In this document: positions 7,382-25,036 of the stretch, one piece after another
Layout of the letters: each line of letters begins with the position of its first letter
Position numbering within the stretch: the first letter of the stretch is position 1
Assembly: GCA_031404615.1 (NCBI GenBank)
Contig: JANNHX010000173.1
Location: forward strand, 1-36,674
Direction: 5' to 3'
Origin: Chloroflexota bacterium
Lineage (GTDB): Bacteria; Chloroflexota; Limnocylindria; Limnocylindrales; CSP1-4
DNA: 36,674 nucleotides
Translations under genes and position numbers: made by a program
Notes under the pieces: model-generated
The model's database searches: none
Told to the model about the DNA's origin: nothing
Seen by the model: the letters and a program-made list of their open reading frames with translations, nothing else

Positions 7382-7414
7382 AGACTATACCAATCAAACC
7401 TTTTGTGGTAGTCT
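7382..7414. promoter_or_regulatory. Candidate operator in a divergent promoter: imperfect inverted repeat AGACTATACCA-N13-TGGTAGTCT containing ATACCAAT
   Basis: An AT-rich patch sits in the 143-nt gap between the divergent FAD-oxidoreductase operon and the GntR operon. The ATACCAAT 8-mer (7387-7394) recurs at two other divergent promoters. TAGTCT (7409-7414) is a possible -10 for the GntR operon. Confidence 0.45.
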
Positions 7415-7445
7415 CATCGATCACCACCACCGACCGAGGGATGGC

Positions 7446-8270
7446 GTGAAGGAACCCCTCTACTCGATTATCGCGGGACGCGCCGAGGCGCTGATCCGCT
7501 CGGGAGCGTGGCCGCACGGGACCCGCCTGCCACCGGAGCGGGAGCTGTGCGAGCTCTTGGACGTGAGCCGCACGTCGCTCCGCCAGGCGCTGGCGGACCT
7601 GGAGGAACGTGGTCTGATCACGCGTCACCAGGGGCGCGGCACCTTCGTGACGCGACCCCGGGTGGACGCCGACGCCTCGGGCTACTTCAGCATCGGCGAC
7701 GCCCTCCGCAGTCGCGGCATGGAGCTGACGACCGCGGTGGTCAGCACGAGCATCGTCGAGGCCAGCGAGCACCTGGCGACGGAGCTGTGCCTGGAGACCG
7801 GCGATCCGGTGTTCAGCCTCGAGCGCCTGCGCTCATCGGATGGTGAGGCCGTCGTCCTCGAAGTGTCCCACCTGCCGCTCAGGCTCTTCCCGAGGCTCGA
7901 CCAGAGGGACTTCTCAAGCCGCTCCCTCTACCACGTCCTGTGGGAGGACTACGGGCGCTACGTCGCCAAGGCGAGCGAGACCCTGGAGCCGGTCGTGCTC
8001 ACCAGCCGCGAGGCCCACGTGCTGGGTGTGTCCCGCGGTGCGCCGGCGCTCCTCTTCCGCCGCACGACGCGGGACAGGTCGAACGTCATCGTCGAGGTCG
8101 GTCAGGGCCTGCTCCGCGGCGACCGTTCGCGGTTCCTCATCGAGCGCCACGTGCAGGAAGGCTGGGCGTCGAGCCATGACCCTTCCGCTCCACCCACCAC
8201 GAGCCGTCCCGCTCCCGAGACACCTTCGCGGATCGCGGCGGGACTGCTGGACGCGTCCACCCCACGCTGA
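7446..8270 (+). CDS. GntR-family transcriptional regulator, HutC subfamily (wHTH + UTRA-like effector domain)
   Basis: The N-terminus has LPPERELCELLDVSRTSLRQALADLEERGLITRHQGRGTFV (GntR wHTH), followed by a UTRA-like domain of about 150 aa. GTG start. Confidence 0.9.
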   Translation: MKEPLYSIIAGRAEALIRSGAWPHGTRLPPERELCELLDVSRTSLRQALADLEERGLITRHQGRGTFVTRPRVDADASGYFSIGDALRSRGMELTTAVVSTSIVEASEHLATELCLETGDPVFSLERLRSSDGEAVVLEVSHLPLRLFPRLDQRDFSSRSLYHVLWEDYGRYVAKASETLEPVVLTSREAHVLGVSRGAPALLFRRTTRDRSNVIVEVGQGLLRGDRSRFLIERHVQEGWASSHDPSAPPTTSRPAPETPSRIAAGLLDASTPR

Positions 8271-8283
8271 ACCTGGAGCTGCC

Positions 8284-9111
8284 ATGTCCGCCGCAATGCC
8301 CGCCCCGAACGCCGCGCTCCGGTGGCTCGGCGAAGCCCGTGCCGTCCTCGACCGCCTCGAGGCGACAGAGCTCGGGGCGATCGAGGATGCAGCGGAGATC
8401 TTCGCGACCACGATCGCCGCCGACCGCCTTGTCCACGTCTTCGGATCAGGGCACTCGCGGATGAACACGGAGGAGATGTTCCCGCGCATCGGCAGCTTCC
8501 CGGGCTTCCATCCCGTCGCCGAGCTCGCCATCAGCAACCATGTGGGCGTCGTGGGGCCCAACGGGTTGCGCCAGGCCATGTTCCTCGAGAAGGTCGACGG
8601 CTTCGGCAAGGTCATCCTCCAGCAGTTCAAGTGCCACCCGGGCGACGCGTTCCTGGTCTTCTCGAGCACGGGGATCAACGGCGTCGTCATCGAGATCGCG
8701 CTCTATGCCAGGAAGATGGGGATGCCCGTGGTCGTCGTGACGTCGGTGGACCACGGCAACGCCACGGCCTCGCGCCACCCCAGCGGCATGAAGCTCATGG
8801 AGATCGCCGACGTCCTGATCGACAACGGGTCGCCGGCCGGAGACGCCGTCGTGGCGATCGATGGGCTGCCGTACAAGGTGGGCCCCAGCAGCTCCGTGGG
8901 TGCCATCTCGGTCGTGAACATGCTCAAGACGCGCACGGCCGAGAAGCTGGTCGAGCGCGGGGTCCTCCCGGTGGTGCTCACCAGCCCGCACTTCGTCGGC
9001 TCGAGCGAGGGCGCCGAGCAGCTCGAACGGGTCTACGAGGAGCACTTCCGGCGCGTTCGCGCAGCCTACGACTCGGACGGTGCCATCGCGGTGCCGGAGA
9101 CCTACGAGTGA
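8284..9111 (+). CDS. SIS-domain protein (UPF0309-like sugar-phosphate isomerase/binding family)
   Basis: LVHVFGSGHSRMNTEEMFPRIGSFPGFHP...FLVFSSTGINGVVIEIALYARKMGMPVVVVTS. ATG at 8284 has GGAG 6 nt upstream and lies 13 nt after the GntR stop. The upstream part of the 423-aa ORF is off-frame overlap with the GntR gene. Confidence 0.8.
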   Translation: MSAAMPAPNAALRWLGEARAVLDRLEATELGAIEDAAEIFATTIAADRLVHVFGSGHSRMNTEEMFPRIGSFPGFHPVAELAISNHVGVVGPNGLRQAMFLEKVDGFGKVILQQFKCHPGDAFLVFSSTGINGVVIEIALYARKMGMPVVVVTSVDHGNATASRHPSGMKLMEIADVLIDNGSPAGDAVVAIDGLPYKVGPSSSVGAISVVNMLKTRTAEKLVERGVLPVVLTSPHFVGSSEGAEQLERVYEEHFRRVRAAYDSDGAIAVPETYE

Positions 9112-9926
9112 GCGATCGGCTCCGTGGCCGGGCCGTGCTGGTCACCGGGGCCACGGGCATCGCCGGCGCGACCGCCGTGCGCGTCGCGAGTGAGGGTGCG
9201 TCCGTCTTCATCGGGACCCGAACCCAGGCCCACGGCGAAGCGCTCGTGGCGCGCATCCGCGACGCCGGGGGCCGCGCCGAGTGTCTGGCCGCCGACCTCA
9301 CGGTCCCGGAGTCGGCCGCTCGCATCGTCGACGCGTGTCGAGCGGCGTTCGGCTCGGTCGACGCAGTGTTCAACGTGGCCGGCGGGAGCGGCCGCCGCTT
9401 CGGCGACGGCCCCGTCCACGAGGCGGATGCCGGGGCATGGGACGCGACGCTCGAGCTCAACGGCCGCTCGGCCTTCCTCGTTTGTGGCGCCGCGGTGCGC
9501 GCGATGCTCGACCAGCCGCCTGGGCCGGACGGGTGTCGGGGCGCCGTCCTCAACATGTCGAGCGTCCTGGCCGCGCACCCTAGCGCGGGGTTCTTCGCGA
9601 CGCACGCCTACACCGCGTCAAAGGGGGCCGTGGAGGCCTTCAGCCGGGCCATGGCGGCGCGCTACGCTCGGGATGGGATCCGGGTCAACGTCATCGCCCC
9701 GGCGCTGACCCGCACGCCGATGGCCGGACGGGCCGCGGCCGATCCCGCCACGGTCGCCTACGCGGCCTGGAAGCAGCCGCTCGCAGGGGGGTTCATGGAG
9801 CCCGAGGACATCGCCGGCACCGCCGCGTTCCTCCTGTCGGCCGATTCCGCCCGCGTGACCGGCCAGACTGTCACCGTGGACGCCGGCTTCGCGCTCATGG
9901 ATGCCTCGTCGGCGGGCGCCTCGTGA
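9108..9926 (+). CDS. Short-chain dehydrogenase/reductase (SDR)
   Basis: VLVTGATGIAGATA (TGxxxGxG) and the catalytic YTASK (YxxxK). GTG start overlaps the SIS stop (GTGA, 9108-9111). Confidence 0.9.
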   Translation: MSDRLRGRAVLVTGATGIAGATAVRVASEGASVFIGTRTQAHGEALVARIRDAGGRAECLAADLTVPESAARIVDACRAAFGSVDAVFNVAGGSGRRFGDGPVHEADAGAWDATLELNGRSAFLVCGAAVRAMLDQPPGPDGCRGAVLNMSSVLAAHPSAGFFATHAYTASKGAVEAFSRAMAARYARDGIRVNVIAPALTRTPMAGRAAADPATVAYAAWKQPLAGGFMEPEDIAGTAAFLLSADSARVTGQTVTVDAGFALMDASSAGAS

Positions 9927-11248
9927 GCTCGGCGCTTGCGTACGATGTCGTCGTCGTCGGGTCCGGCTCGGCGGGCTCGTCGGCCGCCATCGCCGCGGCC
10001 CGTGGCGGGGCCTCGGTCCTGCTGATCGAGAAGCTTCCGTTCCTGGGTGGCACCAGCACGGCGGTCCTGGACACCTTCTACGGGTTCTGGACGCCCGGGT
10101 CCAGCCCGCGGAAGGTCGTCGGCGGGATCGGCGACGAGGTCGTCGCGCGGCTCCGGGAGATCGGCCCCGTCGTGGAGCGGCCGAACACCTTCGGAGCCGG
10201 CCTCGGCGTGACCTATCACCCGGACGAGCTCAAGGTCGCCTGGGAGTCGCTCGTCACGGAGTCCGGCGCGCGGGTCCTCCTCCACGCGTTCGTCCAGGCC
10301 GCCACGGTCCGTTCGGGGCGCCTCGAGTCCGTCACCGTCGCCACCAAGGCCGGACTCCTCGAGGTCGGTGGCTCGGTCTTCATCGACGCCTCGGGCGACG
10401 CCGACCTGTGCCACTTCGCCGGCTTCGGGTACGAGCTGGCGGGCGAGCTCGAGCCTGCGCAGACGCTGACGACGACCTTCCGGATGGTCAATGTCGACCA
10501 GGCCCGGCGACGGACTGTCAGCAAGGCGGAGGTCAACGCCAGACTCGCGGCCGCGGCGGCGACGGGCCGGTACGATCTCCCTCGGCGGGAGGGCTCCGAC
10601 CACATCACGCCGATCGCCGGGGTGACGGCCACGATCATGACGCGCCTCGACTCGTATCGGACGTCCGACGGCCGCGTGGTAAACGCCAGCGATCCGTGGC
10701 TGCTGACCGAGGCCGAGATCGCCGGCCGTCGCCAGGCCCTGGAGTACGTGCGGTTCCTGGTCGACCACGTCCCCGGCTACGAGGATGCGCACCTGGCCAG
10801 CTTCGGGACCCAGGTCGGGGTCCGCGAGACGCGCCGGGTGTACGGCGACCACCGGCTCACCCGCGACGAGGTGCTGTCGGCCGCGCAGTTCGATGACCAG
10901 GTCGCGCTGTGCGGGGCGCCCCTGGAGGACCACCACGCCGGGGCGGACACCGCGTGGACCTACCTGCCCGAAGGGGCAGCCGTCGGCATCCCCTACCGCA
11001 CGCTGCTCGTGAGGGACGCGGACAACGTCCTCGTCGCCGGCCGCTGCTTCTCGGCCACGCATGACGCCCACGCGTCGGTCCGCTCGATGGCCCAGTGCAT
11101 GGCGATGGGCCAGGCGGCCGGAACGGCGGCCGCGCTCGCGGTGGCGGGTCGAGTGACGCCGCGCGAGGTGGCACCGGGCAACCTCCGGGCGGCCCTTGCC
11201 GAAGGCAACGCCATCCTCGAGCTCGACGACGTGGCGGTTCTCGGGTGA
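9923..11248 (+). CDS. FAD-dependent oxidoreductase (FAD_oxidored-type, about 440 aa)
   Basis: YDVVVVGSGSAGSSAAIAAARGGASVLLIEK (GxGxxG + E). GTG start overlaps the SDR stop (GTGA, 9923-9926). Confidence 0.85.
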   Translation: MSSALAYDVVVVGSGSAGSSAAIAAARGGASVLLIEKLPFLGGTSTAVLDTFYGFWTPGSSPRKVVGGIGDEVVARLREIGPVVERPNTFGAGLGVTYHPDELKVAWESLVTESGARVLLHAFVQAATVRSGRLESVTVATKAGLLEVGGSVFIDASGDADLCHFAGFGYELAGELEPAQTLTTTFRMVNVDQARRRTVSKAEVNARLAAAAATGRYDLPRREGSDHITPIAGVTATIMTRLDSYRTSDGRVVNASDPWLLTEAEIAGRRQALEYVRFLVDHVPGYEDAHLASFGTQVGVRETRRVYGDHRLTRDEVLSAAQFDDQVALCGAPLEDHHAGADTAWTYLPEGAAVGIPYRTLLVRDADNVLVAGRCFSATHDAHASVRSMAQCMAMGQAAGTAAALAVAGRVTPREVAPGNLRAALAEGNAILELDDVAVLG

Positions 11249-12249
11249 CGAGCCGGCCGGGCCAGGCGCGGACGGGTGACGCGGGGTTCCTGATCGGCGT
11301 CGACATCGGTGGGACCCGGCTCAAGACCGGCCTCGTCCGCCAGGACGGCACCATCGAGCGGCCCACGGTGGACGCCACGGCGGGGATGCCGTTTCCGGCG
11401 GTGCTGGACCTCATCATCCGACGCGTCGAGGGGCATGTCGAAGCGGGTGGCGGCACGCCGTTGGGGCTCGGCATCGCGCTGCCCGGCATCGTGGAGCCCG
11501 GGTTCGGATCGCGCTACCTGCCGGGCAAGGTGCTGGGGATCGAGGACTTCCCGTTGCGCGACGAGCTCGCCCGCCGGTTCGGGATCCCGGTCCGCTGCGC
11601 CAACGACGGTGCCGCCGCCACCCTCGCGGAGTGGCGGTTCGGCGCTGCGATCGGCATCGACGACGTCGTCGGGCTGACCCTGGGCACGGGTCTCGGGAGC
11701 GGCGTGGTGATCGGCGGGCGGCTCCTCGAGACGGCCAACCTCGGGACGGGCGTGGCCGTCGGGCACTTCACGATCCAGACCGGCGGCCGCCTGTGCCTGT
11801 GTGGCAACCGGGGCTGCGCGGAGAGCCTGGTGTCCGCCAACGCCGTCACCGGGCGGTTGCGTGACGCCCTGACACGGCTCGTCCCGTCATCGCTCGCCGA
11901 GGACTTCGCCCGGGATCCCGCGAGCATCACCTTCCAGTCGCTCATCGGCGGAGTGAGGACGGGTGACCGCGTGTGCACGGAGATCCTGGCCGACTTCGTG
12001 CGGGACCTTGGCACGACGATCGTCACGGCGATCCACGCCTACAACCCAACCGTCGTCGTCCTGGGCGGGGGGCCGATGGCTGCCAGCGACCTGTTCCTTC
12101 ACAACGTGCAGGCGTACGTGAACCAGCACACGTTCATCTTCCCCAAGGGGCGCGTCGTCGAGGTGCGCCAGGCACGGCTGGAGGGCCACGCCGGCGTGCT
12201 CGGGGCCGCAGCCCTCGTCCTGGGCGCAGTCAAGGAGACGGATCGCTGA
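11245..12249 (+). CDS. ROK-family sugar kinase
   Basis: FLIGVDIGGTRLKTG (ATP-binding DxGGT) and the ROK zinc motif CLCGNRGCAE. GTG start overlaps the upstream stop (GTGA, 11245-11248). Confidence 0.9.
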   Translation: MTSRPGQARTGDAGFLIGVDIGGTRLKTGLVRQDGTIERPTVDATAGMPFPAVLDLIIRRVEGHVEAGGGTPLGLGIALPGIVEPGFGSRYLPGKVLGIEDFPLRDELARRFGIPVRCANDGAAATLAEWRFGAAIGIDDVVGLTLGTGLGSGVVIGGRLLETANLGTGVAVGHFTIQTGGRLCLCGNRGCAESLVSANAVTGRLRDALTRLVPSSLAEDFARDPASITFQSLIGGVRTGDRVCTEILADFVRDLGTTIVTAIHAYNPTVVVLGGGPMAASDLFLHNVQAYVNQHTFIFPKGRVVEVRQARLEGHAGVLGAAALVLGAVKETDR

Positions 12250-13214
12250 TGAGCTTCGTGCGGACCGTGCTCGCCGACATCCCGGCGGCGTCGCTCGGCG
12301 TCACGTACGCGCATGAGCACCTGGTCATCGATGGAGGGCGGCCCGTTGCCCTCTACCCGGACTTCCTGCTCGACGATGTCGACCGGGCGGTCGACGAGCT
12401 GGCCCCGGCGAGAGCCCTGGGCCTGGGGGCGGTGGTGGACGCGATGCCCTGCGACGCCGGGCGCAACGTGCGCAAGCTGGCCGAGATCAGCCGCCGGTCC
12501 GGCGTGCACGTTGTCGCGCCGACGGGCCTGCACCTCGCCAAGTACTACGCCGCGGACCACTGGAGCGTCACCGGCAACCAGGACGTGCTCGCCGCGATGT
12601 TCACCGCCGACATCGAGGCCGGGATCGACGCGAACGACTACGCGGGCCCGACGCTCGACCGCACCGGGCATCGCGCCGGCGTCATGAAGATCGCTGGGAG
12701 CGAGCACGGCCTGACGCCACTGGAGCTGAAGATCTACGCGGCCGCAGGGGCCGCCCATCGGGTCACCGGCTGCCCGATCCTCACCCATTGCACCGAGGGA
12801 ACCGCCGCCCTCGAGCAGATCGAGGTCCTTGGCGGCCACGGCGTTGACCCGCGCCACATCGTGCTCTCGCACACCGACAAGATCGTCGACCGCGACTACC
12901 ACCGCGCGATCCTCGAGACCGGCGCCTATGTCGAATACGACCAGACGTTCCGGTGGGGCGCCGATCGGCCGAACGGCACGCTCACCTTGCTGGAGTGGAT
13001 GCTGGAGGACGGGTTCGGCGACCAGCTCCTGCTCGGGATGGATGCCGCGAGGCAGCGCTACTGGTCCACGTACGGCGGCGCACCCGGCATGTCATTCCTG
13101 CTGGGGACCTTCACCGACGCCATGGAGGCGCGCGGCATCGGCGCCGAAGACCGTCGTCGCATCTTCGTCGCCAACCCGGCGAGCGCCTACAGCTTCGCCC
13201 GACCGGTCGCCTGA
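12249..13214 (+). CDS. Phosphotriesterase-family protein (PHP/PLL-type amidohydrolase, probable lactonase)
   Basis: GVTYAHEHL (HxH metal site), VMKIAGSE (Lys at the carboxylated-lysine position), THCTEG, LSHTD. ATG overlaps the ROK stop by 1 nt (TGATG, 12247-12251). Confidence 0.85.
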   Translation: MSFVRTVLADIPAASLGVTYAHEHLVIDGGRPVALYPDFLLDDVDRAVDELAPARALGLGAVVDAMPCDAGRNVRKLAEISRRSGVHVVAPTGLHLAKYYAADHWSVTGNQDVLAAMFTADIEAGIDANDYAGPTLDRTGHRAGVMKIAGSEHGLTPLELKIYAAAGAAHRVTGCPILTHCTEGTAALEQIEVLGGHGVDPRHIVLSHTDKIVDRDYHRAILETGAYVEYDQTFRWGADRPNGTLTLLEWMLEDGFGDQLLLGMDAARQRYWSTYGGAPGMSFLLGTFTDAMEARGIGAEDRRRIFVANPASAYSFARPVA

Positions 13215-13220
13215 CGAGCG

Positions 13221-14525
13221 CTACATCCCGAAGACCGAGCGGGCAAGCGCCACCCAGCGCGTGAGCCGAGCGCGGTCGCCGGCGATGGCGTAGAGGTCCC
13301 GGAACAGCAGCTCCACGTTGCAGCCGCCGGCCGCATGGGCGGTCCGCCGAAGATCGCGCTCCACGAGCTCCCAGTCGGGGGACGGGCCGCTCAGGAAGGC
13401 CGCGTTGGGCTTGCGGGAGTAGACGTATCGGTCACCCAGCATCTCCGCCACGAGCTCGAAGCTCGCCCACGGGGAGACGGAGACGGACCGCAGGTTGGGC
13501 ATCGCCTCCATGATCAGCTCGAGTCGGTCGTGGACCGGCTCGCAACACCCGTAGTAGACGAGGCCGAAGCGAGCCGCCAGGCGGGCGATGTAGGGCAGGA
13601 AGAACTCGCGGTACATGGCCGGCGACACCGTCGTGGTCTCCTGGGACTCCGCCCAGCACCACAGGTCGCCGAGGCCGGCCGTGCCCGGCGCATCGGCCGG
13701 GGGGAGCGACGACACGTAGCCGTACGCCCGGGGTCCCGCCATCTGGCTGTCGGTGTTCGGCACGATCAGTCCCTCGCGCTCGAGCTCGCCGAACATCCGC
13801 TCGCGGTCACGGGTCATGTACTCCATCAGCTCATGGATCGCGTCGGGCGCGTCGTACAGCCAGTAGAGGAGCCCGTCGTTGCCGATGAAGCGGTAGACCT
13901 GCCACGTGAGACCCAGGAAGTAGTTGCCGGCCCAGCTCTCGTTCCCCTGCTCGACCATGAAGTGGTCGTAGTTGCCGACCCGCACGGGCAGCACGTCGCC
14001 GAATGCGTCCTCCAGGAGGCGCTGCCGGGCCAGCGTGCCGGGCCGGTCGACCGAGAACGACCGCGGCTTGAGCAGCGCGACCTGGGCCGGGCTGCGGATG
14101 GGGAAGTTGAAGGTGTAGCCCAGCGACGGGTCGCCGTCCGCCGTGTGCGCGGGCCGCGTCTCGACGTCCACGCCGAAGGGGGTGCTCCCGATGTCCCAGC
14201 CGATCCGGTAGTAGGGCTCGAGGACGATGTCGTCGCCGACCTCGTCCGCGTGGCGGATCGTGTCGCGCAAGTTCGCCTCCACGGCACGCAGGATCGGTTG
14301 CGCGCAGCGCAGCTCGGACGTCTCGACGTATCCCTCGATGGAGGACGTCTCGAAGAGCACCATCGGCCGCTCCGGGCGCAGGTCGTGCAAGGCCCGCCAC
14401 TGGCGGCGGCGATCTGCCATCACGGGCTGCCCGGCGAGCTCCGCCCAGCGGGTCGCGAGGTCCCGGATGACGGCGCGGTCCGCAGTCGAGGGCACGAGGG
14501 TCGACGGGGCGGGTCGCTCGGTCAT
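13221..14525 (-). CDS. Hypothetical protein, distant UROD/MetE-like TIM-barrel superfamily member
   Basis: 434-aa product. The N-terminal RRRQWRALHDLRPERPMVLFETSSIEGY block and the C-terminal LVYYGCCEPVHDRLELIMEAMPNLRSVSVSPWASFE...YSRKPNAAFL block resemble an uncharacterised family usually annotated as uroporphyrinogen-decarboxylase-like. ATG at 14525 overlaps the upstream stop (ATGA, 14522-14525). Confidence 0.5.
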   Translation of the reverse strand: MTERPAPSTLVPSTADRAVIRDLATRWAELAGQPVMADRRRQWRALHDLRPERPMVLFETSSIEGYVETSELRCAQPILRAVEANLRDTIRHADEVGDDIVLEPYYRIGWDIGSTPFGVDVETRPAHTADGDPSLGYTFNFPIRSPAQVALLKPRSFSVDRPGTLARQRLLEDAFGDVLPVRVGNYDHFMVEQGNESWAGNYFLGLTWQVYRFIGNDGLLYWLYDAPDAIHELMEYMTRDRERMFGELEREGLIVPNTDSQMAGPRAYGYVSSLPPADAPGTAGLGDLWCWAESQETTTVSPAMYREFFLPYIARLAARFGLVYYGCCEPVHDRLELIMEAMPNLRSVSVSPWASFELVAEMLGDRYVYSRKPNAAFLSGPSPDWELVERDLRRTAHAAGGCNVELLFRDLYAIAGDRARLTRWVALARSVFGM

Positions 14526-15649: not shown

Positions 15650-15692
15650 GTGGTCTCCTCCCGGCCGGGTGACCGGCCGCAGCGGCTCCGGG

Positions 15693-16322
15693 CTAGGCTC
15701 CCGCCAGGGCGAGCTTGGCGACGTCGGCGGCAGCACCGGCGTCGGGTGCGTAGTAATCCGCGCCGATGGACGCCGCGAACTCGGGCGTGACGGGGGCTCC
15801 GCCGACGATCACCCTGACGGCGGGGTCGACGGCGTGGACCGCCTCCACGGCGTCGCGCATGCCGACCATCGTCGTCGTGAGCAGCGCGCTGATGCCCACG
15901 ATCGAGGCCCCGAACTCGCGCACCGCGTCGGCGAAGGCCGCGGGAGTGACGTTGACGCCGAGGTCCACGACCGCGATGTTGGCGCCCTTCCACATCATGG
16001 CGACGAGGTTCTTGCCGATGTCGTGGAGGTCGCCCTGGATCGTCCCGATGACGGCGGTGTGCTCCGGCTTGAGGCCCGCGGCCAGGAGGGCCGGCGCGAG
16101 GACGGCCGTGGCCTCCTTCATGGCCCGGGCGCTGATCAGCATCTCGGGCACAAAGATGTCACCGGCCTGGAACCGGGCGCCGACGACCTCCATCGCCGCG
16201 ATCATCGCGTCGAGGACGACCTGCGGGTCCATCCCGTCGGCGACCGCGTCGGTGGTGATCCGGACGGCCGTCGCCCGGTCTCCGGCCTCGATGGCCTGGG
16301 TGAGCGGTACGAGATCAGCCAC
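15693..16322 (-). CDS. Cobalamin-binding corrinoid protein (methyltransferase cognate; B12-binding cap + Rossmann domain)
   Basis: DxHxxG base-off/His-on motif (GDLHDIGKNLV), SxL (ISALLTTT), GG (VIVGGAPV), and an N-terminal helical cap (AIEAGDRATAVRITTDAVADGMDPQVVLDAMIAAMEVVGARFQAGDIFVPEMLISARAM). GTG at 16322 is preceded by AAGGAGA. Confidence 0.9.
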   Translation of the reverse strand: MADLVPLTQAIEAGDRATAVRITTDAVADGMDPQVVLDAMIAAMEVVGARFQAGDIFVPEMLISARAMKEATAVLAPALLAAGLKPEHTAVIGTIQGDLHDIGKNLVAMMWKGANIAVVDLGVNVTPAAFADAVREFGASIVGISALLTTTMVGMRDAVEAVHAVDPAVRVIVGGAPVTPEFAASIGADYYAPDAGAAADVAKLALAGA

Positions 16323-16392
16323 GGGTCTCCTTGGTGCTGTCGGCCCGAGCGCGTGAACGCGAGCGGGGGCTTGAACCGGACGCCGCATGCAG

Positions 16393-16413
16393 TATGATAC
16401 CAATCCTACCAAT
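16393..16413. promoter_or_regulatory. Candidate operator/promoter: TATGATACCAATCCTACCAAT (ATACCAAT plus a direct TACCAAT repeat, overlapping a TATGAT -10-like hexamer)
   Basis: An AT-rich patch lies in the 115-nt divergent gap between the corrinoid-protein operon and the plus-strand URO-D-family gene. It shares the 8-mer with sites at 7387 and 25015. Confidence 0.4.
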
Positions 16414-16437
16414 TGTCACGAGGATTCCGGCGTGCCG

Positions 16438-17583: not shown

Positions 17584-17595
17584 CGCGGGCACTTC

Positions 17596-20500
17596 CTATG
17601 CCGTCCCGGGCGGCGAGGCCGGCGGCGGCTCGCCCGCGATCCGGTCGAGCGCGCGGAGCGCGCCCATGTGCGATGGGTCGGCCGCGAGGACCTCGGCGAG
17701 GACGTCGCTCGCTTCGCCGGTGCGCCCGAGGGCACCCAGCGCGACGCCCTCGAGCCAGCGGCAGTCGAGGCGATGGCGTCGGTCGAGGTCGTCCTCGAAG
17801 ACGAGGAACGTCGGCAGGGACGTCGCGAAGAAGTCGATCCCCACGGGTTTCCTCGCCGCCCGGCGCGTGGCGTGCAGCAGGCCGCGGATGGCGAGCGCGC
17901 CGTCGTCGTGCCTGCCGGTGGCAACGAGCGCCAGGCCCCGGAAGGCCGCGGCCGCATGCAGCTCCGCGCCCGCCGGGAGCGGCGAGGCCGCTCGCCCCCA
18001 GGCGGCGAGCGCGCCTGCGGCGTCGCCGGCGGCCTGCCTCGCGCGACCCAGCTCGAACCAAAGCTCGTGCTCCGGATCCAGCGGATGGCGCGCCTCGCCG
18101 AGCGTCTCGGGCGGCTCGAGGGCGGCGTCGAGGTGGCCGATCGCTGCCGCCGCGTCGCCCGCCAGGAGCGCGGCCCTGCCTAGGCGGAGCCTCGCGCCGG
18201 TATGGGCATCGAGCGCCAGCCCCTCGCCGCCCTCCCAGGGGTGGAACCGGCGGCCGGAGAGGTGGGCCAGCGCGGCGGCGGCGCCTCGGACCTGCTCGAG
18301 CAGCAGCGCCATCTCGACACCGAGGTCGTCGCGGAGCGCCACCAGGTCGCGCTGACGCTCGAGGCGCCGGAGCCGCGCGGCGGGCGAGGCACCACGGCGC
18401 TTCTGGAGCTGGTCCAGCTCGTAGAGCACCCGCGCGTCGGTGGGGTCACAGGCGAACGCACGCAGGAACGAGCGCTCGGCGGCGCCGGGGGCGCGGAGCA
18501 CGTTGGCCTGCGCGATCCCCAGGTTGCGATGCACCGTCGGAAAGCCGGGGTCCAGCGCCCGGGCGGTGCGCCAGCAGGCGATCGCGTCGGCGTACCTGCG
18601 CCGGTCGTAGTAGAGGTTCCCGAGGTAGTACGGCGCGCGCGGGTCGCTGGGAACGGCGGCGGATGCGGCGAGCAGGATCTCGATCTCCACGAGGCGTGCG
18701 GGAAAGCAGCCATCCGCCGGCAGGGCGGCGGCGCGCCGGTACCAGGCCGCAGCCCCGTCCGGATCCCCGAGCCGGTCGCGGATCCAGCCCACGGTGTACG
18801 CGACCATCGGGTCGAGCGACGGTCCGCCCTCCGCGGCCACCACGAGCGGCGCGAGCTCGTCCTCGGCGTCGGCCAGCAGGCCAGCTGCAGCGTACTCGTG
18901 AGCGATGTCGAGCGCCGCCTGGGTCGCGGGCTGTCCCAGCACGGCGGCGGGCACCGGCAGATCACCGGGGCCCGGGCCTTCGAGCCGCCGGCGCTCCGCG
19001 AGCAGCCACCGGTCCAGCGGGTCCACGGCCAGGCCCGCGGCCACGACCGCAAGGGCGCCCACGTCGTCGCCCTGGTGGCGAAGCAGCGCAGCCTTGAGCG
19101 CGACCGCGGTCGCGTGCCTCGGATCGGCATCGAGCGCCCGGTCCGCCCGCGCGAGGGCACCACGCAGGTCTCCGGCCCGGGCGCGGAGCTGCGCGAGGGC
19201 ATGCTCAGCGGGTGCCTGCCATGCCCGCGACCACGTGGCCTTGGCGAGGGACTCCTCCGCCTCGGCATCGCGGCCGAGAAGCGCGAGACAGAGCCCGATC
19301 TGGTAGAAGGGCTCACCGTCGCCCGGGTTCGCGTTGCGCCGCGTCACACGGTCTACGGCCGTCCGCAGGTGCCGCTCCGCGTCGGCGTACCGGCCCGCGC
19401 GCAGCAGCATGACCCCGACGGCCGTGTTCGTCCGGACATCCGTGGGATCCCGCCGTAGCGCCTCCGCCCAGTACGGTCCGGGAAGCCTCGTCGCGTGGCG
19501 GTACTGCTCCAGGTGCACCGCGGTCAGGTACAGCTCCTCGATGGTCGGGACGTTGGCCGGGGCCGGCGGCTCCGCCGCGAGGACTGCGCCGGCTGCGGGC
19601 GCGTCCGACGCGGTGGAGGCCCGGATGAGCTCCCGACCATCCGCGGCACGCACCACGACGTCGAGAGTGGCGCCGGCCTGCAGCCCCGCGGGGAGCGCCA
19701 GGCGCAAGGGCGCGGCCGGCGTGATGGCTCCCCGGCGCTCTGCGAGGACCGCGCCGTCCCGGGTGACCACGACCAGGGCCGGCTCGACGGCTCGGGTCAC
19801 GTTGACGCCAACCTCGATCGCGACGGCGGCGGCGTCGCGCCGGACGCTCACGGCGGCGTCCCGGTTGGCCGCGAGCACGGGACCGATGTCCCGGATCGGG
19901 TACCAGGCCTGGGTGAACGTCCTGGTCTCGTAGGGCGCGAGGTAGGAGAAGTCCGGCTGGTTGTCGGTGTAGACCCCGGCCATCAGCTCGATGTAGGGGC
20001 CGCCCCCATCGGTGAGGTTGCGCTCCCACGCACGCCCGAACGCTGCGTCGCCCCAGGTCCACTGCTTCTTGCCGGGCGCGACGCGGTGGTCGGCGATGTG
20101 GACGAGGCCGGCGCCGGCCTCATGGTCGTAGCCGCCGAAGAAGTCCTCGCGGGACCCGACGGCCATGTACGAGGTCGGAACGGGGATGTTGGCGTACCAC
20201 GAGAGGTCGGCTGCCTCGGGCGGTCGCGCCCCGTAGTCGACGCCGTAGTAGCGGCCCCGGGCCACCGGGAACGCCGAGGTCGCGCGCCGGGCGTGGTCCG
20301 CCACGGAACGCACGTCGGACGGGAAGAACGACTGGTAGCGCTCGTTGACTCGGACGGCGACGTTCGCCCACCACAGGAAGGTCTGCGTGTGGGGCGTCCG
20401 GTTGGCGAGCCGGACGCGCGCCTCCACGAGCGACGAGCCGGGGCGCAGCCGGATCCCCACCATGCCCTTCATCCGGTTCATCGGCTCGTGGTCGCCCATC

Positions 20501-20976
20501 CACACGATCCGACCGCCGTCGGGCTCCTCCTCGATCGCCCAGTCCACCGGCATGAAGGTCGACGGCCGGTGGTGCTGCGGCCAGTTGAACTCGACGCCGC
20601 CGCTGATCCACGGCCCGAGCAGGCCGACCAGGGCGGGCTTGATCACCGGCTGGCGGTAGAAGAAGTCGTAGCCGTTGGTCCTGTCGCGGCCGACCTGGAT
20701 CCTGCCCCCGATCTCGGGGAGCAGCATCAGCGAGACGAGGTCGTTCTCGAGGTGGATCGCCTGCCAGGTGCGGTCCTCGCAGACGTCCAGGACGCGATCG
20801 ATGATCCGGTTCGGGTACACCCTCCCGCTGCTGCCCTGGTAGACCCGCTTCTCGAGGAACATCGGGTTCCGGTCCGGGGGCGCGAGCGGGTACGTCGGGA
20901 TGACGACGGGCTCGGCCCATGCCCGGACGCCCGTCTCGGGGGCTCCGCTGGGGGACGCATCGTCGCCGGCCATCAT
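17596..20976 (-). CDS. Large DUF5107-domain protein with a C-terminal TPR array (1126 aa)
   Basis: The N-terminus IPTYPLAPPDRNPMFLEKRVYQGSSGRVYPNRIID...GPWISGGVEFNWPQHHRPSTF matches my recollection of DUF5107. The C-terminal ~650 aa has repeated A/L-rich helical TPR-like units (YYLGNLYYDRRRYADAIACWRTARALDP...). The start lies 4 nt after the permease stop. Confidence 0.75.
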   Translation of the reverse strand: MMAGDDASPSGAPETGVRAWAEPVVIPTYPLAPPDRNPMFLEKRVYQGSSGRVYPNRIIDRVLDVCEDRTWQAIHLENDLVSLMLLPEIGGRIQVGRDRTNGYDFFYRQPVIKPALVGLLGPWISGGVEFNWPQHHRPSTFMPVDWAIEEEPDGGRIVWMGDHEPMNRMKGMVGIRLRPGSSLVEARVRLANRTPHTQTFLWWANVAVRVNERYQSFFPSDVRSVADHARRATSAFPVARGRYYGVDYGARPPEAADLSWYANIPVPTSYMAVGSREDFFGGYDHEAGAGLVHIADHRVAPGKKQWTWGDAAFGRAWERNLTDGGGPYIELMAGVYTDNQPDFSYLAPYETRTFTQAWYPIRDIGPVLAANRDAAVSVRRDAAAVAIEVGVNVTRAVEPALVVVTRDGAVLAERRGAITPAAPLRLALPAGLQAGATLDVVVRAADGRELIRASTASDAPAAGAVLAAEPPAPANVPTIEELYLTAVHLEQYRHATRLPGPYWAEALRRDPTDVRTNTAVGVMLLRAGRYADAERHLRTAVDRVTRRNANPGDGEPFYQIGLCLALLGRDAEAEESLAKATWSRAWQAPAEHALAQLRARAGDLRGALARADRALDADPRHATAVALKAALLRHQGDDVGALAVVAAGLAVDPLDRWLLAERRRLEGPGPGDLPVPAAVLGQPATQAALDIAHEYAAAGLLADAEDELAPLVVAAEGGPSLDPMVAYTVGWIRDRLGDPDGAAAWYRRAAALPADGCFPARLVEIEILLAASAAVPSDPRAPYYLGNLYYDRRRYADAIACWRTARALDPGFPTVHRNLGIAQANVLRAPGAAERSFLRAFACDPTDARVLYELDQLQKRRGASPAARLRRLERQRDLVALRDDLGVEMALLLEQVRGAAAALAHLSGRRFHPWEGGEGLALDAHTGARLRLGRAALLAGDAAAAIGHLDAALEPPETLGEARHPLDPEHELWFELGRARQAAGDAAGALAAWGRAASPLPAGAELHAAAAFRGLALVATGRHDDGALAIRGLLHATRRAARKPVGIDFFATSLPTFLVFEDDLDRRHRLDCRWLEGVALGALGRTGEASDVLAEVLAADPSHMGALRALDRIAGEPPPASPPGTA

Positions 20977-20980
20977 GCGA

Positions 20981-22114
20981 TCAGGCGCTCGCGGTGGTCC
21001 TGGACCCGGACCGCTCGGAGCGCGACTGGCGCCACTGCGACAGGGCGACCGCGAAGACGAGCAGCATGCCGAGGGCGATCCGCTGGTAGAACTGGCCCAC
21101 GCCGAGCAGATTCATCCCGTTGTTGAGGACGCCGACGAGCAGGACCGCGAGGACCGTGCCCACGATGGTGCCGCGGCCACCCGCGGTCGCCGCCCCGCCG
21201 AGGAACACGGCGGTGATCGCCTGGAGCTCGAGGCCGCGACCGTTGATCGGGTTGCCCGACGTCGTCTGGGCCGTGAGGAGGACGCCGGCGATGCCGGCGA
21301 TCGCGCCCGACACCACGTACATGCCGATGCGCACAGCCCGGACGTTGATGCCCGCCAGGCGTGCGGCCGTGGCGTTGCCGCCGATCGCGTAGATGGACCG
21401 GCCGAAGTCGGTGTAGCGCATGACGATGTGCATGATCGTGGCCACCGCGATGAACACCACGAACATGACCGGCAGTCCCGGCCACGGGCGTCCTCCAAGC
21501 GCAGGCAGCGGCAGGTCCTGGAGAAATCGGCCTGTCCCCAACCACGTGAAGTCGGGATGGGTGACGATGCCGATCGGCTTGCCTCCGGGCGCAACGAGGA
21601 ACGCGAGGCCGTCGAATGCGGCCAGCGTGCCAAGCGTTGCGATGATCGGGTTCACCTTGAGGACCGTCACGATGAGGCCGTTGATGACGCCCGCGGCAGA
21701 CCCGGCACCCATGCCGGCGGCGAAGGCGAGCACCACGGAGCCCTCGAAGGCACCGAGGATCCCCTGGGTCACGGCAAGGGCAGAGACGACGGACGCCAGG
21801 CTGGCGATGGAGCCGACCGAGATGTCGAGCGCGCCGGCGACGATGACGGCCGTCTCGCCGACCGCCAGGAGCCCGACGATGACCACGCTCTGGGCGAGGC
21901 TGTTGATGAGGTTCTGCCACGAGAAGAAGTTCTCTCCGCCCTTGATCCCGAATAGCGGCGAGACAAACGCGATCAGGATGCCGAGAGCCGCCAGGGCAGC
22001 GAACAGCGAGAGGTTGTCCACGCCGATCGTGCCGATGACCCGGCGAAACACTCCGGGCCCCGTGGGCTTCGCGGATGGTGCGGGCTGCACGGCCGGAGCC
22101 TGCCCGTCGTTCAT
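20981..22114 (-). CDS. Sugar ABC transporter permease (CUT2/RbsC-XylH type)
   Basis: About 10 hydrophobic segments and GALDISVGSIASL (typical of BPD_transp_2 permeases). ATG at 22114 overlaps the ATPase stop (ATGA, 22111-22114). The longest ORF adds an R/P-rich junk extension. Confidence 0.85.
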   Translation of the reverse strand: MNDGQAPAVQPAPSAKPTGPGVFRRVIGTIGVDNLSLFAALAALGILIAFVSPLFGIKGGENFFSWQNLINSLAQSVVIVGLLAVGETAVIVAGALDISVGSIASLASVVSALAVTQGILGAFEGSVVLAFAAGMGAGSAAGVINGLIVTVLKVNPIIATLGTLAAFDGLAFLVAPGGKPIGIVTHPDFTWLGTGRFLQDLPLPALGGRPWPGLPVMFVVFIAVATIMHIVMRYTDFGRSIYAIGGNATAARLAGINVRAVRIGMYVVSGAIAGIAGVLLTAQTTSGNPINGRGLELQAITAVFLGGAATAGGRGTIVGTVLAVLLVGVLNNGMNLLGVGQFYQRIALGMLLVFAVALSQWRQSRSERSGSRTTASA

Positions 22115-23697
22115 GCTCGAACTTCTCCAGCTAGGGCCGGCGGCACGGGGACCGCGGCCAGGTGGTCGGCCATGGCGAGGGCGAGGACGGACTCCTCGGT
22201 CGCCTGGCTGCCGAGGAGCTCGCCGCGGATCCGGCCGGCCTGCATCACGTAGATGCGGTCGCAAAGGCCGAGGATCTCGGTCAGCTCGGACGAGATGAGG
22301 ACGACGGCGAGCCCGTCAGTGGCGAGCCCGTCGATGAGGCGATAGATCTCCGCCTTGGCGCCGACGTCGATGCCGCGGGTCGGCTCGTCGAGGATCAGCA
22401 CGCGCGGCTTGGCGGCGAGCCAGCGGGCGAGGACGACCTTCTGCTGGTTGCCGCCGGACAGCTTGCCGATCTCCTGCTCGAGCGACGGGGTCCGGACACG
22501 CAGGCGGTCGACGAACGTGGCGACGATGCGGCGTTCCTCTCGGCGGCGGACGAAATGCAGGGTCGTGAGGCGCCGCAGGATCGTGAGCGACGCGTTCTCG
22601 AGCACGCTGCGGATCGGGATGATCCCCTCGCGCTTGCGCTCCTCGGGCGTGTAGCCGATGCCGACGCGGATGGCGTCCGACGGGCGGTGGACATGGACCA
22701 CCTTGCCGTCGACCTGCACGGTGCCGGCGGTCATCGGCAGCTCGCCGAACACGACCTTCGCCAGCTCGGTGCGGCCGGCGCCGACGAGCCCGGCGAAACC
22801 GACGACCTCACCCGCCCGCGCCTCGAACGACACGTCTCGGTGCCAGTCGCTGGACAGGTGGTCGACGCGCAGCACGACGGCCCCGGTCGGAGGGCGGTTG
22901 CGGGCGAAGACGTCAGTGATGGGCCGGCCCACCATCAGGCGCACGATCTCGCCCTCGGTAAGGTCGGCGGCGGCGCGCACGGCGACGAGCCGTCCGTCAC
23001 GGAGCACCGCGACGCGGTCGGCCAGGCGGAGGATCTCGTTGATCCGGTGGGAGACGTAGATGATGGCGACGCCCTGCGCCCGGAGCCTGCGGACCAGCGC
23101 GAACAGGCGGTCCACTTCGGCGTCGGTGAGCGACGACGTCGGCTCATCCAGGGCGAGCACCCTGACGCCGGATTTGAGCGCCCGGGCGATCTCCACGAGC
23201 TGCCGCTGGGCGGCCGACAGCCGGTCACCCATGGTCTCGGGGCTCAGGACCGATTCGAACCCAAAGCGCCGCAGGTCCGCGGCAACGAGCTCGTTGAGCT
23301 TGCGCCGATCGATGAACGGGCCACGCGTCGGCAGCTCGCCCGCGTAGATGTTTTCGGCGACGTCCACGCCGGGGATGATCTCGGGCTCCTGGTAGATGAC
23401 GCGGACCCCGGCGTGCCGGGCCTCCCGCGGATTGGAGAACCGGAGGGTCACCCCGTCGAGGGTCATCGTCCCGTCGTCGGGCTGATAGTCGCCGTTGAGG
23501 ATCTTGAGCAGCGTCGACTTGCCGGCGCCGTTCTCGCCCATGCAGGCGAGGATCTCGCCGCCGTGGACATCGAGCGACACGTCGTCCAGGGCCTGGACGT
23601 TTGGAAAGGCCTTGCTCAGGCCGCGGATCTCCAGGGTGCCCGTGTCGGGGCTCCCCGGCTGCCGGTCGGCGGTTGCCGGCTCCAAGTCAGGCGCCAT
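22111..23697 (-). CDS. Sugar ABC transporter ATP-binding protein, fused double NBD (RbsA/MglA/XylG type)
   Basis: NBD1: Walker A GENGAGKST, signature LSAAQRQ, Walker B LALDEPT. NBD2: GLVGAGRTE, LSGGNQQK, LILDEPTRGID. Confidence 0.9.
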   Translation of the reverse strand: MAPDLEPATADRQPGSPDTGTLEIRGLSKAFPNVQALDDVSLDVHGGEILACMGENGAGKSTLLKILNGDYQPDDGTMTLDGVTLRFSNPREARHAGVRVIYQEPEIIPGVDVAENIYAGELPTRGPFIDRRKLNELVAADLRRFGFESVLSPETMGDRLSAAQRQLVEIARALKSGVRVLALDEPTSSLTDAEVDRLFALVRRLRAQGVAIIYVSHRINEILRLADRVAVLRDGRLVAVRAAADLTEGEIVRLMVGRPITDVFARNRPPTGAVVLRVDHLSSDWHRDVSFEARAGEVVGFAGLVGAGRTELAKVVFGELPMTAGTVQVDGKVVHVHRPSDAIRVGIGYTPEERKREGIIPIRSVLENASLTILRRLTTLHFVRRREERRIVATFVDRLRVRTPSLEQEIGKLSGGNQQKVVLARWLAAKPRVLILDEPTRGIDVGAKAEIYRLIDGLATDGLAVVLISSELTEILGLCDRIYVMQAGRIRGELLGSQATEESVLALAMADHLAAVPVPPALAGEVRA

Positions 23698-23734
23698 ACG
23701 TCCTCACCGATGCGCTCTCTTGAGCATGGACTGT

Positions 23735-23762
23735 CCCCCGGTCGCCACACGGCGACCGGGGG
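23735..23762 (-). terminator. Strong intra-operon hairpin between the SBP and ATPase genes (12-bp perfect stem, 4-nt loop); attenuator/mRNA-stabiliser candidate
   Basis: CCCCCGGTCGCC-ACAC-GGCGACCGGGGG sits in the 85-nt SBP-ATPase gap. There is no U-tract, and a GGTGAGGA RBS for the ATPase follows. Confidence 0.5.
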
Positions 23763-23782
23763 CCAGCCAGGAGGAGGATGGA

Positions 23783-24868
23783 CTACTTGCAGGCTGCGAG
23801 GGAGGCCTTGCTGAAGGTCGCCTCGTACGTGGTCGGGTCCACGATCGTGGTCTTGGCCACGGTGGTCGGCGGCAGGGCCGTGCCGTTGACGACGTTGTCC
23901 CACAGCGCCTGGGCGGCGGCCGCGCCGACGTCGGTGCCGGAGATGTAGAGGCCGGCCTTGAAGCCGCTCTCCTGGCCGGCAGCCCACGGGCGGCAGGCCT
24001 CGTAGGCGCCGAGGCCCACGCCGATGATGGCATCGGGCTTCACGCCGGCGGCGCCCAAGGCGTTGATGCCGCCCAGCACGCTCTCGTCGTTGCAGCCGAA
24101 GACCACCCAGTTGGTGACGTCCGGATGAGCGGTGATGACCGGGGCGGCCGCAGACTGCGAGCCGGCCACGGTGGCGTCCGAGGCGACGGGGAAGATCTGG
24201 TCGGCGGTGGCGCCCGCCTTGGCGACCTCGGCCTTCGAGGCGTCGGTGCGCTGGTTGCAGACGGTCAGGTCCTGCTTCTCGACGGAGAGGACGCCCACCT
24301 TCTTGGTGCTGTCGGTGAGCCAGCCACCCGCGGTGAGGAGGCGACCGGCCTCGACGCCGACCTTGGTGCCCATGTCCGTGCCGTCGAAGCCGACGAACGG
24401 GATGTCCGCTCCGGCGGCGTCCTTGATCGGGTCATCGGTGGCGACGAGGGCCACGCCGGCATCTTTGACGGCGGTCGCGATCGCGGGCCCGATCGACTGG
24501 TCGGGGACCGTGATGGCGATGCCCTTGGCGCCCTTCGAGATGGCGTCGTTGACGAGCTGGACGCCCAGCGGCGCCTCGGCCTTGGCATCGAACTTGGCGG
24601 CCTCGCCGCCGAGGCCGGTGATCGTGTCGACGAACGCGGTCTGCAGGTCGATGAAGTACTGCTGGTCGGCGGCCTTGTTGATGACCACGAACAGCTGCTT
24701 GCCTGCCGCGGAGGGGGCCGCTTCGGACGGGGCTGCGACGGAGGCCGCCGCGGAGGGGGCTGCGACGGAGGCCGCCGCGGAGGGCGACGCCGCCCCGTTG
24801 GACGAGCACGCGCCGACGGCGAGCGCCACGATGGCGGTCAGTGCCGCGACGCGCTGAACCTTCTTCAA
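23783..24868 (-). CDS. Sugar ABC transporter substrate-binding lipoprotein (CUT2, periplasmic-binding-protein type I)
   Basis: The TTG start at 24868 has a perfect AGGAGG 6 nt upstream and gives (M)KKVQRVAALTAIVALAVGAC, a signal peptide plus lipobox LAVGAC. This is followed by an Ala/Ser/Pro linker and an RbsB-like body (KQLFVVINKAADQQYF...GIAITVPDQ...VVFGCNDE). The longest ORF (25030) is rejected. Confidence 0.85.
   Translation of the reverse strand: MKKVQRVAALTAIVALAVGACSSNGAASPSAAASVAAPSAAASVAAPSEAAPSAAGKQLFVVINKAADQQYFIDLQTAFVDTITGLGGEAAKFDAKAEAPLGVQLVNDAISKGAKGIAITVPDQSIGPAIATAVKDAGVALVATDDPIKDAAGADIPFVGFDGTDMGTKVGVEAGRLLTAGGWLTDSTKKVGVLSVEKQDLTVCNQRTDASKAEVAKAGATADQIFPVASDATVAGSQSAAAPVITAHPDVTNWVVFGCNDESVLGGINALGAAGVKPDAIIGVGLGAYEACRPWAAGQESGFKAGLYISGTDVGAAAAQALWDNVVNGTALPPTTVAKTTIVDPTTYEATFSKASLAACK
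24728..24781. repeat. Perfect 27-bp tandem duplication (2 copies) inside the SBP linker
   Basis: GGGGCTGCGACGGAGGCCGCCGCGGAG occurs at 24728-24754 and again at 24755-24781. It encodes SAAASVAAP twice, with a degenerate partial copy just upstream. Confidence 0.9.
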
Positions 24869-25014
24869 GTGAGACCTCCTGTGCGGGCGGCCGAACGACA
24901 TCTGACCTGCACCAGCGGGTCGGGGCTGGAGGACGACAACGGCTGACCCGGCGCGGTTGGCCTCGAAGGCTGCCGCCTGTCCGTGCAGTGTGCGGATCGG
25001 CGCTGGGACTGTCA

Positions 25015-25036
25015 ATACCAATAATGCCATTATGGT
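25015..25036. promoter_or_regulatory. Candidate operator: ATACCAATAAT-GCC-ATTATGGT (imperfect inverted repeat containing ATACCAAT)
   Basis: An AT-rich patch lies in the 230-nt divergent gap between the ABC/DUF5107 operon and the aldolase gene. It shares the 8-mer with sites at 7387 and 16397. Confidence 0.4.

Follow-up and report, generated by a model that had tools for sequence, protein, structure and literature searches.

The GntR island and its three shared intergenic sites

The window analysed here is a 36.7-kb stretch of DNA (36,674 nucleotides, contig JANNHX010000173.1) from a Chloroflexota bacterium. It carries an island of catabolic-type genes in which the 8-mer ATACCAAT occurs three times, each time between divergent transcription units, together with a gene for a GntR regulator of the HutC subfamily (7446-8270). 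A first-pass annotation, made from the letters of the sequence, proposed that this 8-mer marks a GntR/HutC regulon that ties the island together. Comparison with related genomes leads us to conclude that the three sites are very probably the operators of this regulator, acting as a repressor (probability about 0.85). Gene starts were re-determined from ribosome-binding sites, domain boundaries and a lipoprotein signal peptide, and the features of the locus are given below.

Proposed operators, promoter element and regulator:
7380..7404, plus strand: operator site 1, core TACCAAT-CA-AACCTTT (7388-7403), common to the amine-oxidase operon (minus strand) and the gntR operon (plus strand)
16390..16414, plus strand: operator site 2, perfect direct repeat TACCAAT-CC-TACCAAT (16398-16413), between the corrinoid operon (minus strand) and the UroD-like gene (plus strand)
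25008..25032, plus strand: operator site 3, TACCAAT-AA-TGCCATT (25016-25031), between the ATP-binding cassette (ABC) transporter/DUF5107 operon (minus strand) and the aldolase gene (plus strand)
7406..7414, plus strand: extended -10-like element TGgTAGTCT of the gntR operon, the same sequence as the right arm TGGTAGTCT given to site 1 in the first-pass annotation
7446..8270, plus strand: GntR/HutC-subfamily regulator and proposed repressor, 274 amino acids, with a winged helix-turn-helix (wHTH) and a UTRA domain

Amine-oxidase unit (5051..7302):
6028-7302, minus strand: amine-oxidase-family flavoprotein (PF01593, 8e-34), divergent from gntR
5051-6031, minus strand: unknown protein, its gene overlapping the amine oxidase gene

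Remainder of the gntR operon (8284..13214):
8284-9111, plus strand: SIS-domain protein (Pfam/NCBIfam)
~9108-9926, plus strand: glucose-dehydrogenase-like SDR protein (Pfam/NCBIfam)
9923-11248, plus strand: flavin adenine dinucleotide (FAD) oxidoreductase, PF12831
11245-12249, plus strand: ROK kinase
12249-13214, plus strand: PTE-family lactonase-like protein, best NCBIfam match phospho-furanose lactonase, below cut-off

Corrinoid operon (13221..16322) and the gene divergent from it:
15693-16322, minus strand: B12-binding corrinoid protein (PF02310/PF02607)
14522-15649, minus strand: MtaA/CmuA-like UroD protein, here UroD-b (PF01208)
13221-14525, minus strand: protein c, no Pfam match
16432..17583, plus strand: MtaA/CmuA-like UroD protein, here UroD-a (PF01208), transcribed from site 2

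Transporter operon (17596..24901) and the gene divergent from it:
23783-24901, minus strand: binding lipoprotein (lipoprotein signal peptide; Pfam)
22111-23697, minus strand: ATPase (Pfam)
20981-22114, minus strand: permease (Pfam)
17596-20976, minus strand: DUF5107-TPR protein (Pfam)
25099..25737, plus strand: KDPG/KHG-type aldolase (PF01081, 5e-40; TIGR01182 above cut-off), transcribed from site 3

An exact count placed ATACCAAT at 7387-7394, 16397-16404 and 25015-25022, all on the plus strand and with no further copy on either strand of the window. These are the positions that had been found by eye, and the sequence contexts quoted for them are correct at all three sites. The estimate of well under one chance hit also agrees with dinucleotide shuffles of the window, which gave a mean of 0.02 copies and a maximum of 1, with three copies reached in none of 100. 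The AT-rich patches that had been pointed out are real, in that the three sites (GC fractions of 0.33, 0.33 and 0.37) are the three lowest-GC 30-mers of the window, the next standing at 0.47. Their divergent intergenic placement is upheld by the re-determined gene starts: site 1 lies between the starts of the amine oxidase (ATG, 7302) and GntR (GTG, 7446), site 2 between those of the corrinoid protein (GTG, 16322) and UroD-a (GTG, 16432), and site 3 between those of the ABC binding protein (ATG, 24901) and the KDPG-type aldolase (ATG, 25099).

The whole assembly (4.13 Mb, 720 contigs, 71.7% GC, ~90% complete) contains 13 copies of the bare 8-mer, three of them within the 0.9% of the genome that is the window. 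Our own composition estimate predicts ~8.5 copies genome-wide, and since the ten copies outside the window fit this expectation the bare 8-mer is not diagnostic, whereas the extended motif, present on only the three window copies among the 13, is. Chance recurrence in AT-rich intergenic DNA matches the frequency of the outside copies, but for the window sites it is effectively refuted by the shuffles, by a similarity that spans ~18-25 bp, beyond the 8-mer, and by a matrix trained on foreign genomes that singles out exactly these three sites, as described below.

The regulator and its link to the element

The regulator belongs to the HutC subfamily because it joins a GntR wHTH (PF00392, E = 1e-20, residues 6-68) to a UTRA effector domain of the chorismate-lyase fold (PF07702, E = 8.9e-37, residues 89-227, a full-length profile match). 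Its best solved relatives are DasR (2e-37) and NagR/YvoA (8e-35). Within the NagR-DNA structure, Arg38, Arg48 and Gly69 make specific contacts to the palindrome GTGGTCTAGACCAC, reading the GG of TGGT (PMC4333415), and these residues correspond to R32, R42 and G63 in the regulator (HMMER alignment to 2wv0). The recognition region is near-invariant across 35 aligned orthologues, whatever their operator type, and the base-contacting residues are kept in nearly all of them; in the most divergent row (L026) a Ser replaces the Arg just after the Gly. GntR is the sole DNA-binding regulator of the island, as had been claimed, and there is no other near it. The ROK protein was considered as an alternative regulator and rejected, since it aligns as a kinase and has no N-terminal helix-turn-helix.

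Orthologues of the regulator (52–69% identity) were found in 40 of 401 genomes of the same family, the named relatives being Limnocylindrales and Chloroflexia metagenome-assembled genomes. One public record gives a 60% homologue the name "NagR", a label assigned automatically. Elsewhere in the genus an orthologue was present in one genome only, at 55% identity. The regulator and the island are missing from ~20 other same-genus genomes and the nearest copy (69%) is in a different genus, which suggests patchy inheritance or lateral transfer of the island.

We picked 30 orthologues from about ten genera by protein similarity alone and used their upstream regions to build a matrix. All 30 regions contain (T/G)ACCAAT, then a second ACCA box, then a -10-like element, and the element lies 30–60 bp upstream of the regulator gene in every case, which bears out the proposed tie of one motif class to the GntR protein at 7446. 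A 25-bp weight matrix, built only from these 30 foreign autoregulatory sites, was run on both strands of the window's own genome (8.26 million positions), the one genome that this whole-genome scan covered. The three window sites ranked first to third in the assembly (site 1, 24.8 bits; site 3, 20.1 bits; site 2, 19.1 bits), with the next match at 14.6 bits, so the comparison of orthologous regions suggested by the first-pass annotation places its sites on top. As the matrix derives from foreign sites only, sites 2 and 3 were recognised by a model that never saw them.

The matrix scan found no fourth site in the ~90% complete assembly. Four weaker matches (on contigs C430, C596, C698 and C388) were inspected, and those on C430 and C698 are clearly inside coding frames, the other two being less clear. 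An initial matrix made from the window's own sites was circular and was replaced by the foreign-site matrix. Matrices limited to the right part or to the palindrome part were less specific and were also set aside; with these, site 3 or site 2 fell below a few matches, two of them (C430, C698) in coding frames. A blind pattern scan of 300 family genomes returned 18 matches, 10 of which lie 20–75 bp upstream of a GntR orthologue on the same strand, against nine scattered matches for a reversed control pattern. One pattern match (G209:C1:139235) was treated as chance, having no regulon genes nearby and no matrix match (L047).

The element could instead be the operator of a regulator encoded elsewhere, either another GntR-family paralogue or an unrelated factor, in which case the island's own GntR would have a different target. 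There are at least seven further GntR-family matches in this genome, and other regulators may be missing from an assembly that is ~90% complete. However, the element is directly upstream of this particular orthologue in all 30 genomes, whatever the neighbouring genes, the best paralogue in the genome is only 31% identical, and the half-site and spacing of the motif are those of the closest characterised relatives, DasR and NagR (PMC4333415). We consider a regulator encoded elsewhere very unlikely.

Two other repeats were observed. In a same-genus relative (L002, G023:C270, 2415-2440), a second inverted repeat, TACAAC-N5-GGTTGTA, stands beside the GntR operator and abuts the start of a divergent open reading frame of 111 amino acids; it probably serves another small regulator. 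Outside the window in its own genome (C576:1700-1750), the perfect palindrome TGGTATCGATACCA occurs twice, 24 bp apart, between an ABC sugar permease gene (minus strand) and a PfkB-type kinase gene (plus strand). Its spacing differs from that of the studied motif and the matrix gives it no score; judging by its appearance, the pair may serve as operator for another GntR-type sugar regulon.

Operator architecture and promoter overlap

Each of the three sites has a second ACC/GCC-wwT box exactly 9 bp past the first, and a repeat search recovered TACCAAT twice in site 2 at a spacing of 9. The orthologue consensus, AAtGGT-aca-TACCAAT-CaG-ACCAat, consists of a TTGGT-N4-ACCAA palindrome plus an extra direct half-site. 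Its GT-N4-AC core is well kept in the 30 orthologue sites (left arm G 28/30, G 27/30, T 25/30; right arm ACC 30/30). The left arms of the three window sites read AGA, GTA and TGT, and only the right half-site and the direct second box are kept; this second ACCwwT half-site is common to the three window sites and the majority of the foreign ones. On these alignments, the conserved core in this genome is a direct repeat, TACCAAT-N2-nnCCwwT, with a 9-bp period, apparently a degenerate form of the dre-like palindrome TTGGT-N4-ACCAA with its extra half-site seen in other genera.

The first-pass annotation had likened ACCA...TGGT arms at the sites to GntR/HutC half-sites. The likeness holds for the HutC/dre half-site TGGT/ACCA itself, but the arm pairs named at sites 1 and 3 were not supported as the conserved feature. 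In the site-1 palindrome AGACTATACCA-N13-TGGTAGTCT, the right arm is the conserved -10-like element and the left extension AGACTA is not conserved; the palindrome is largely coincidental. The site-3 right arm ATTATGGT is missing from the orthologous site of genome G402. If the widely spaced inverted repeat TACCA-N13/14-TGGT were nevertheless the functional operator, the direct half-site would be secondary. This would suit site 1 (TACCA-N13-TGGTA) and site 3 (TACCA-N14-TGGTT), and TGGTA does occur in the -10 region of several close orthologues (G402, G174, G065). Yet site 2 has no such arm, the orthologous transporter sites of G402 and G153 have none, other orthologues read TGCTA at this position, as TGnTAnnnT predicts, and it is the second ACCwwT box that is shared by the window sites and most foreign ones. 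An inverted-repeat operator is in our judgement very unlikely, and the direct second box is favoured as the partner of the central half-site.

The sites were also compared with promoter elements. Site 2 straddles a face-to-face arrangement of promoter-like pairs, TTGAAC-16-TATGAT on the plus strand (16371-16398) and GTGACA-17-CATACT on the minus strand (16419-16391), and its repeat overlaps the plus-strand -10 and the spacer of the minus-strand promoter. The TATGAT whose overlap had been noticed earlier is the -10 of the plus-strand pair. At site 1 the operator occupies the -35/spacer region, just ahead of the conserved -10-like element. A -10-like TAnnnT, mostly preceded by TGn, stands at the same distance past the operator in every orthologue upstream region (for example TGCTAGACT, TGGTAGCCT and TGATATCAT). 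A strict sigma-70 scan gave promoters at site 2 only, with no -35/-10 pair at sites 1 and 3. No Rfam family is present in the window, and for this reason an explanation by a riboswitch or leader RNA was dropped.

This geometry raises the question of whether the element is a promoter feature, a -35/spacer read by an alternative sigma factor, rather than a repressor site. The central half-site of the autoregulatory sites does fall near the -35 position, at a fixed distance to the conserved -10. However, the two-fold symmetric TTGGT-N4-ACCAA of most genera is what dimeric repressors typically bind, unlike the sequences that sigma factors recognise, the position relative to promoter-like hexamers varies (site 2 overlaps the -10 and extends downstream), and the element occurs in both orientations relative to the downstream gene. 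We regard a sigma-factor element as highly improbable.

We propose that, without effector, the dimeric repressor would bind the central (T/G)ACCAAT and the second ACCwwT half-site 9 bp downstream. In most related genera a left arm completes a dre-like TTGGT-N4-ACCAA; this arm is degenerate in the present lineage. Each site would overlap or adjoin promoter elements of the two divergent units around it and, in the simplest reading, promoter occlusion would repress both. One protein would then repress six units in all: the gntR operon and the amine-oxidase unit at site 1, the corrinoid protein/UroD operon and the UroD-a gene at site 2, and the CUT2-type ABC transporter/DUF5107 operon and the KDPG-type aldolase gene at site 3. 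A pathway intermediate, probably a phosphorylated sugar by analogy with NagR, DasR and TreR, would free the repressor. The parts of this model that we infer are physical binding, a repressing and not an activating role, the effector and the substrate. An autoregulated HutC repressor acting on divergent catabolic promoters follows textbook logic.

Conserved targets, a candidate pathway and known systems

Membership that persists through gene rearrangements is the standard comparative-genomics criterion for a regulon, and we compared the target genes across the genomes that carry the regulator. The core order GntR-SIS-SDR-FAD oxidoreductase-ROK-PTE is kept, following the GntR orthologue at loci L043, L044, L045 and L052, and in G290 a split-off PTE gene has its own site. 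Orthologues of the binding-protein gene have a matrix match of at least 15 bits in their upstream divergent region in 16 of the 18 cases that could be evaluated. The site in G402, AGAGTCAATACCAATCATGCCATTA, is near-identical to window site 3, and the aldolase gene lies ~1.1 kb beyond it. In G174 the aldolase gene and GntR have one operator region in common, as do the aldolase and binding-protein genes in G153. The amine-oxidase orthologue of G402 is transcribed divergently from GntR, as in the window, and that of G153 follows the aldolase in an operon behind a site. An orthologue of the unknown protein (5051-6031) accompanies the ABC transporter in G153, in G402 and in the genomes of genus g33.

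The methyltransferase genes have moved further. UroD-a orthologues (70–84% identity) are the last gene of the GntR operon in ~12 g33 genomes, and in G108 and G382 they lie more than 230 kb from the regulator with their own site 60–100 bp upstream (20.7 and 18.6 bits). In g33 genomes the genes for the corrinoid protein and UroD-b come last in the regulated transporter operon. In g36 genomes the pair is in an operon whose first genes are those of a RACo-type corrinoid activator and an MTHFR-like protein, with a separate site at its head (19.8 and 23.6 bits), and in G382 the activator and the MTHFR-like gene share one regulated operon with the corrinoid module. Corrinoid operons are thus preceded by the element in three different gene arrangements.

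MttB was rejected as a conserved regulon member. Among the 40 genomes that carry GntR, only three have an MttB orthologue; it has no site and is either distant by hundreds of kb or encoded on a different contig. In the window, MttB could be controlled only by read-through from site 1. The island-wide regulon of the first-pass annotation thus stands in part: the GntR motif class does precede orthologous target operons in other genera, but the MttB/metallophosphoesterase end of the island is not demonstrably reached. The regulon ends at the aldolase gene on the other side, as the genes downstream of the island have no matrix match. These downstream genes are glnK-amtB, a pyridoxal-phosphate-dependent decarboxylase gene and glmS (29809-31717, 33520-35508).

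Several points weigh against our assignment of the three sites to the GntR repressor and of these genes to one regulon. The left TGGT arm is missing from all three window sites, so that a symmetric dimer would meet a direct repeat. Since the strict sigma-70 scan is positive only at site 2, operator-promoter overlap at sites 1 and 3 depends solely on the -10-like element. The binding-protein orthologues of G190 and G381 have no site at 10 bits or above. The MFS, phosphoesterase and MttB genes would join the regulon if they were transcribed together from site 1. A single genus, g33, supplies many of the supporting genomes, and these do not count as independent cases. Where the regulator is missing, the rest of the island is probably missing too, and co-occurrence therefore does not distinguish GntR from the other proteins encoded there.

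Other observations were made on these loci. At L143 of a g33 genome (G190:C1, ~13120-17052), a full-length gene for B12-dependent methionine synthase (MetH) is transcribed divergently from the GntR operon, and the intergenic region between the two holds the strongest operator site that we found (39.7 bits). The L143 operon also holds genes for a DHDPS-family aldolase, an FGGY kinase, a class II aldolase and a HAD hydrolase ahead of UroD-a. The FAD-oxidoreductase orthologue is in two to three pieces in different frames at L051 (G290:C7, 6510-7807) and L045 (G153:C15, 8286-9516); these may be frameshifts, due either to pseudogenes or to assembly errors. Within the window, start and stop codons overlap by 4 bp at 14522-14525 (UroD-b/protein c), 22111-22114 (ATPase/permease) and 6028-6031 (amine oxidase/unknown protein), consistent with translational coupling inside the regulated units.

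The gene content suggests, tentatively, what the regulon might do. It may encode an undescribed catabolic route for a methylated sugar-like substrate (an O-, S- or N-methyl sugar or cyclitol) in Limnocylindria-type Chloroflexota, although we hold this to be somewhat less probable than not. The CUT2 ABC transporter would take up the substrate; the corrinoid protein and UroD-family methyltransferases would demethylate it, helped in some genomes by the RACo activator and the MTHFR-like enzyme; the ROK kinase, SDR, phospho-lactonase-like enzyme and SIS protein would degrade the sugar; and the KDPG-type aldolase would carry out the final cleavage. The DUF5107-TPR protein and the amine-oxidase-type and PF12831 flavoproteins would act in further steps. 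A literature search gave nothing useful on DUF5107.

If such a route exists, conserved co-regulation over three gene arrangements would offer a first functional clue to these families. The operator provides independent, conserved evidence for one pathway in a poorly studied, uncultured Chloroflexota lineage, tying together the corrinoid protein with two UroD-like homologues and an adjacent unknown-family protein, the DUF5107-TPR protein, two flavoproteins, a sugar-phosphate oxidation/aldolase route and a monosaccharide-type ABC transporter. It also sets the neighbouring MttB quaternary-amine methyltransferase apart from the pathway, and the question of the substrate becomes testable through the ligands of the binding protein and the regulator.

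We compared the regulator and its regulon with characterised systems. DasR of Streptomyces coelicolor and NagR/YvoA of Bacillus subtilis have the same GntR wHTH and UTRA architecture and, as here, have a site before their own gene and on sugar-uptake and catabolic operons. The regulator is not a DasR orthologue, judging by an alignment that is clearly partial and roughly one third identical by eye, nor does it belong to a joint NagR/DasR orthologous group, since every NCBIfam equivalog score falls far short of its cut-off and the regulon has no nag genes. Unlike the DasR and NagR regulons, this one has no nagA, nagB or PTS genes and instead comprises a CUT2 ABC transporter, DUF5107, ROK kinase, SDR, lactonase-like protein, aldolase and a corrinoid/UroD methyltransferase module.

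The corrinoid module has its own parallel. Corrinoid systems with UroD-family (MtaA/CmuA-like) parts, the O-demethylases and type 1 mlp clusters (PMC10418091), likewise combine a corrinoid protein with UroD-family methyltransferase homologues. Membership of MtaA/CmuA is not established for the window proteins because their NCBIfam scores are far below cut-off (TIGR01463: 57.6 and 72.3 bits for the two UroD proteins, against 235), with the corrinoid protein encoded adjacent. Type 1 mlp clusters have been reported only in obligate anaerobes, mostly Firmicutes, with proposed roles in methyl-sulfur or methyl-selenium metabolism (PMC10418091), whereas the module described here is embedded in a sugar-type regulon of Chloroflexota.

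The operator itself is close to dre. The idealised dre operator (5'-GTGGTCTAGACCAC-3') and the orthologue consensus AAtGGTacaTACCAAT agree in their TGGT/ACCA half-sites and in the spacing GT-N4-AC, and the dre sites that occur in nature are likewise imperfect as palindromes (PMC4333415). The HutC consensus NyGTMTAKACNy also places GT and AC 4 nt apart (PMC4494728). On these comparisons we regard the element as a probable dre-like HutC operator, of which this lineage keeps only the right half-site and the extra box in strong form. It differs from dre in that the left half-site is lost in this genome and a direct second half-site 9 bp downstream is conserved. Direct-repeat HutC operators exist, for example those of NagQ (TGGTATT) and FarR (PMC4494728), and the reverse complement of the window motif, ATTGGTA-GG-ATTGGTA, shows similar directly repeated TGGTA-type half-sites, a likeness by description with no claim of orthology. 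The direct repeat here looks derived and degenerate, because the same regulator family in related genera uses a palindrome with one extra box. Suvorova et al. (2015) described a weaker extra box 7–12 nt from the site centre in the HutC, FadR and YtrA groups (PMC4494728), and the third ACCwwT box found here lies 9 bp from the central half-site. In contrast to those weak boxes, this one is as conserved as the right arm of the palindrome and outlasts the left arm in this lineage. One regulator family would thus span operators from a palindrome with an extra box to a pure direct repeat, with its recognition helix unchanged.

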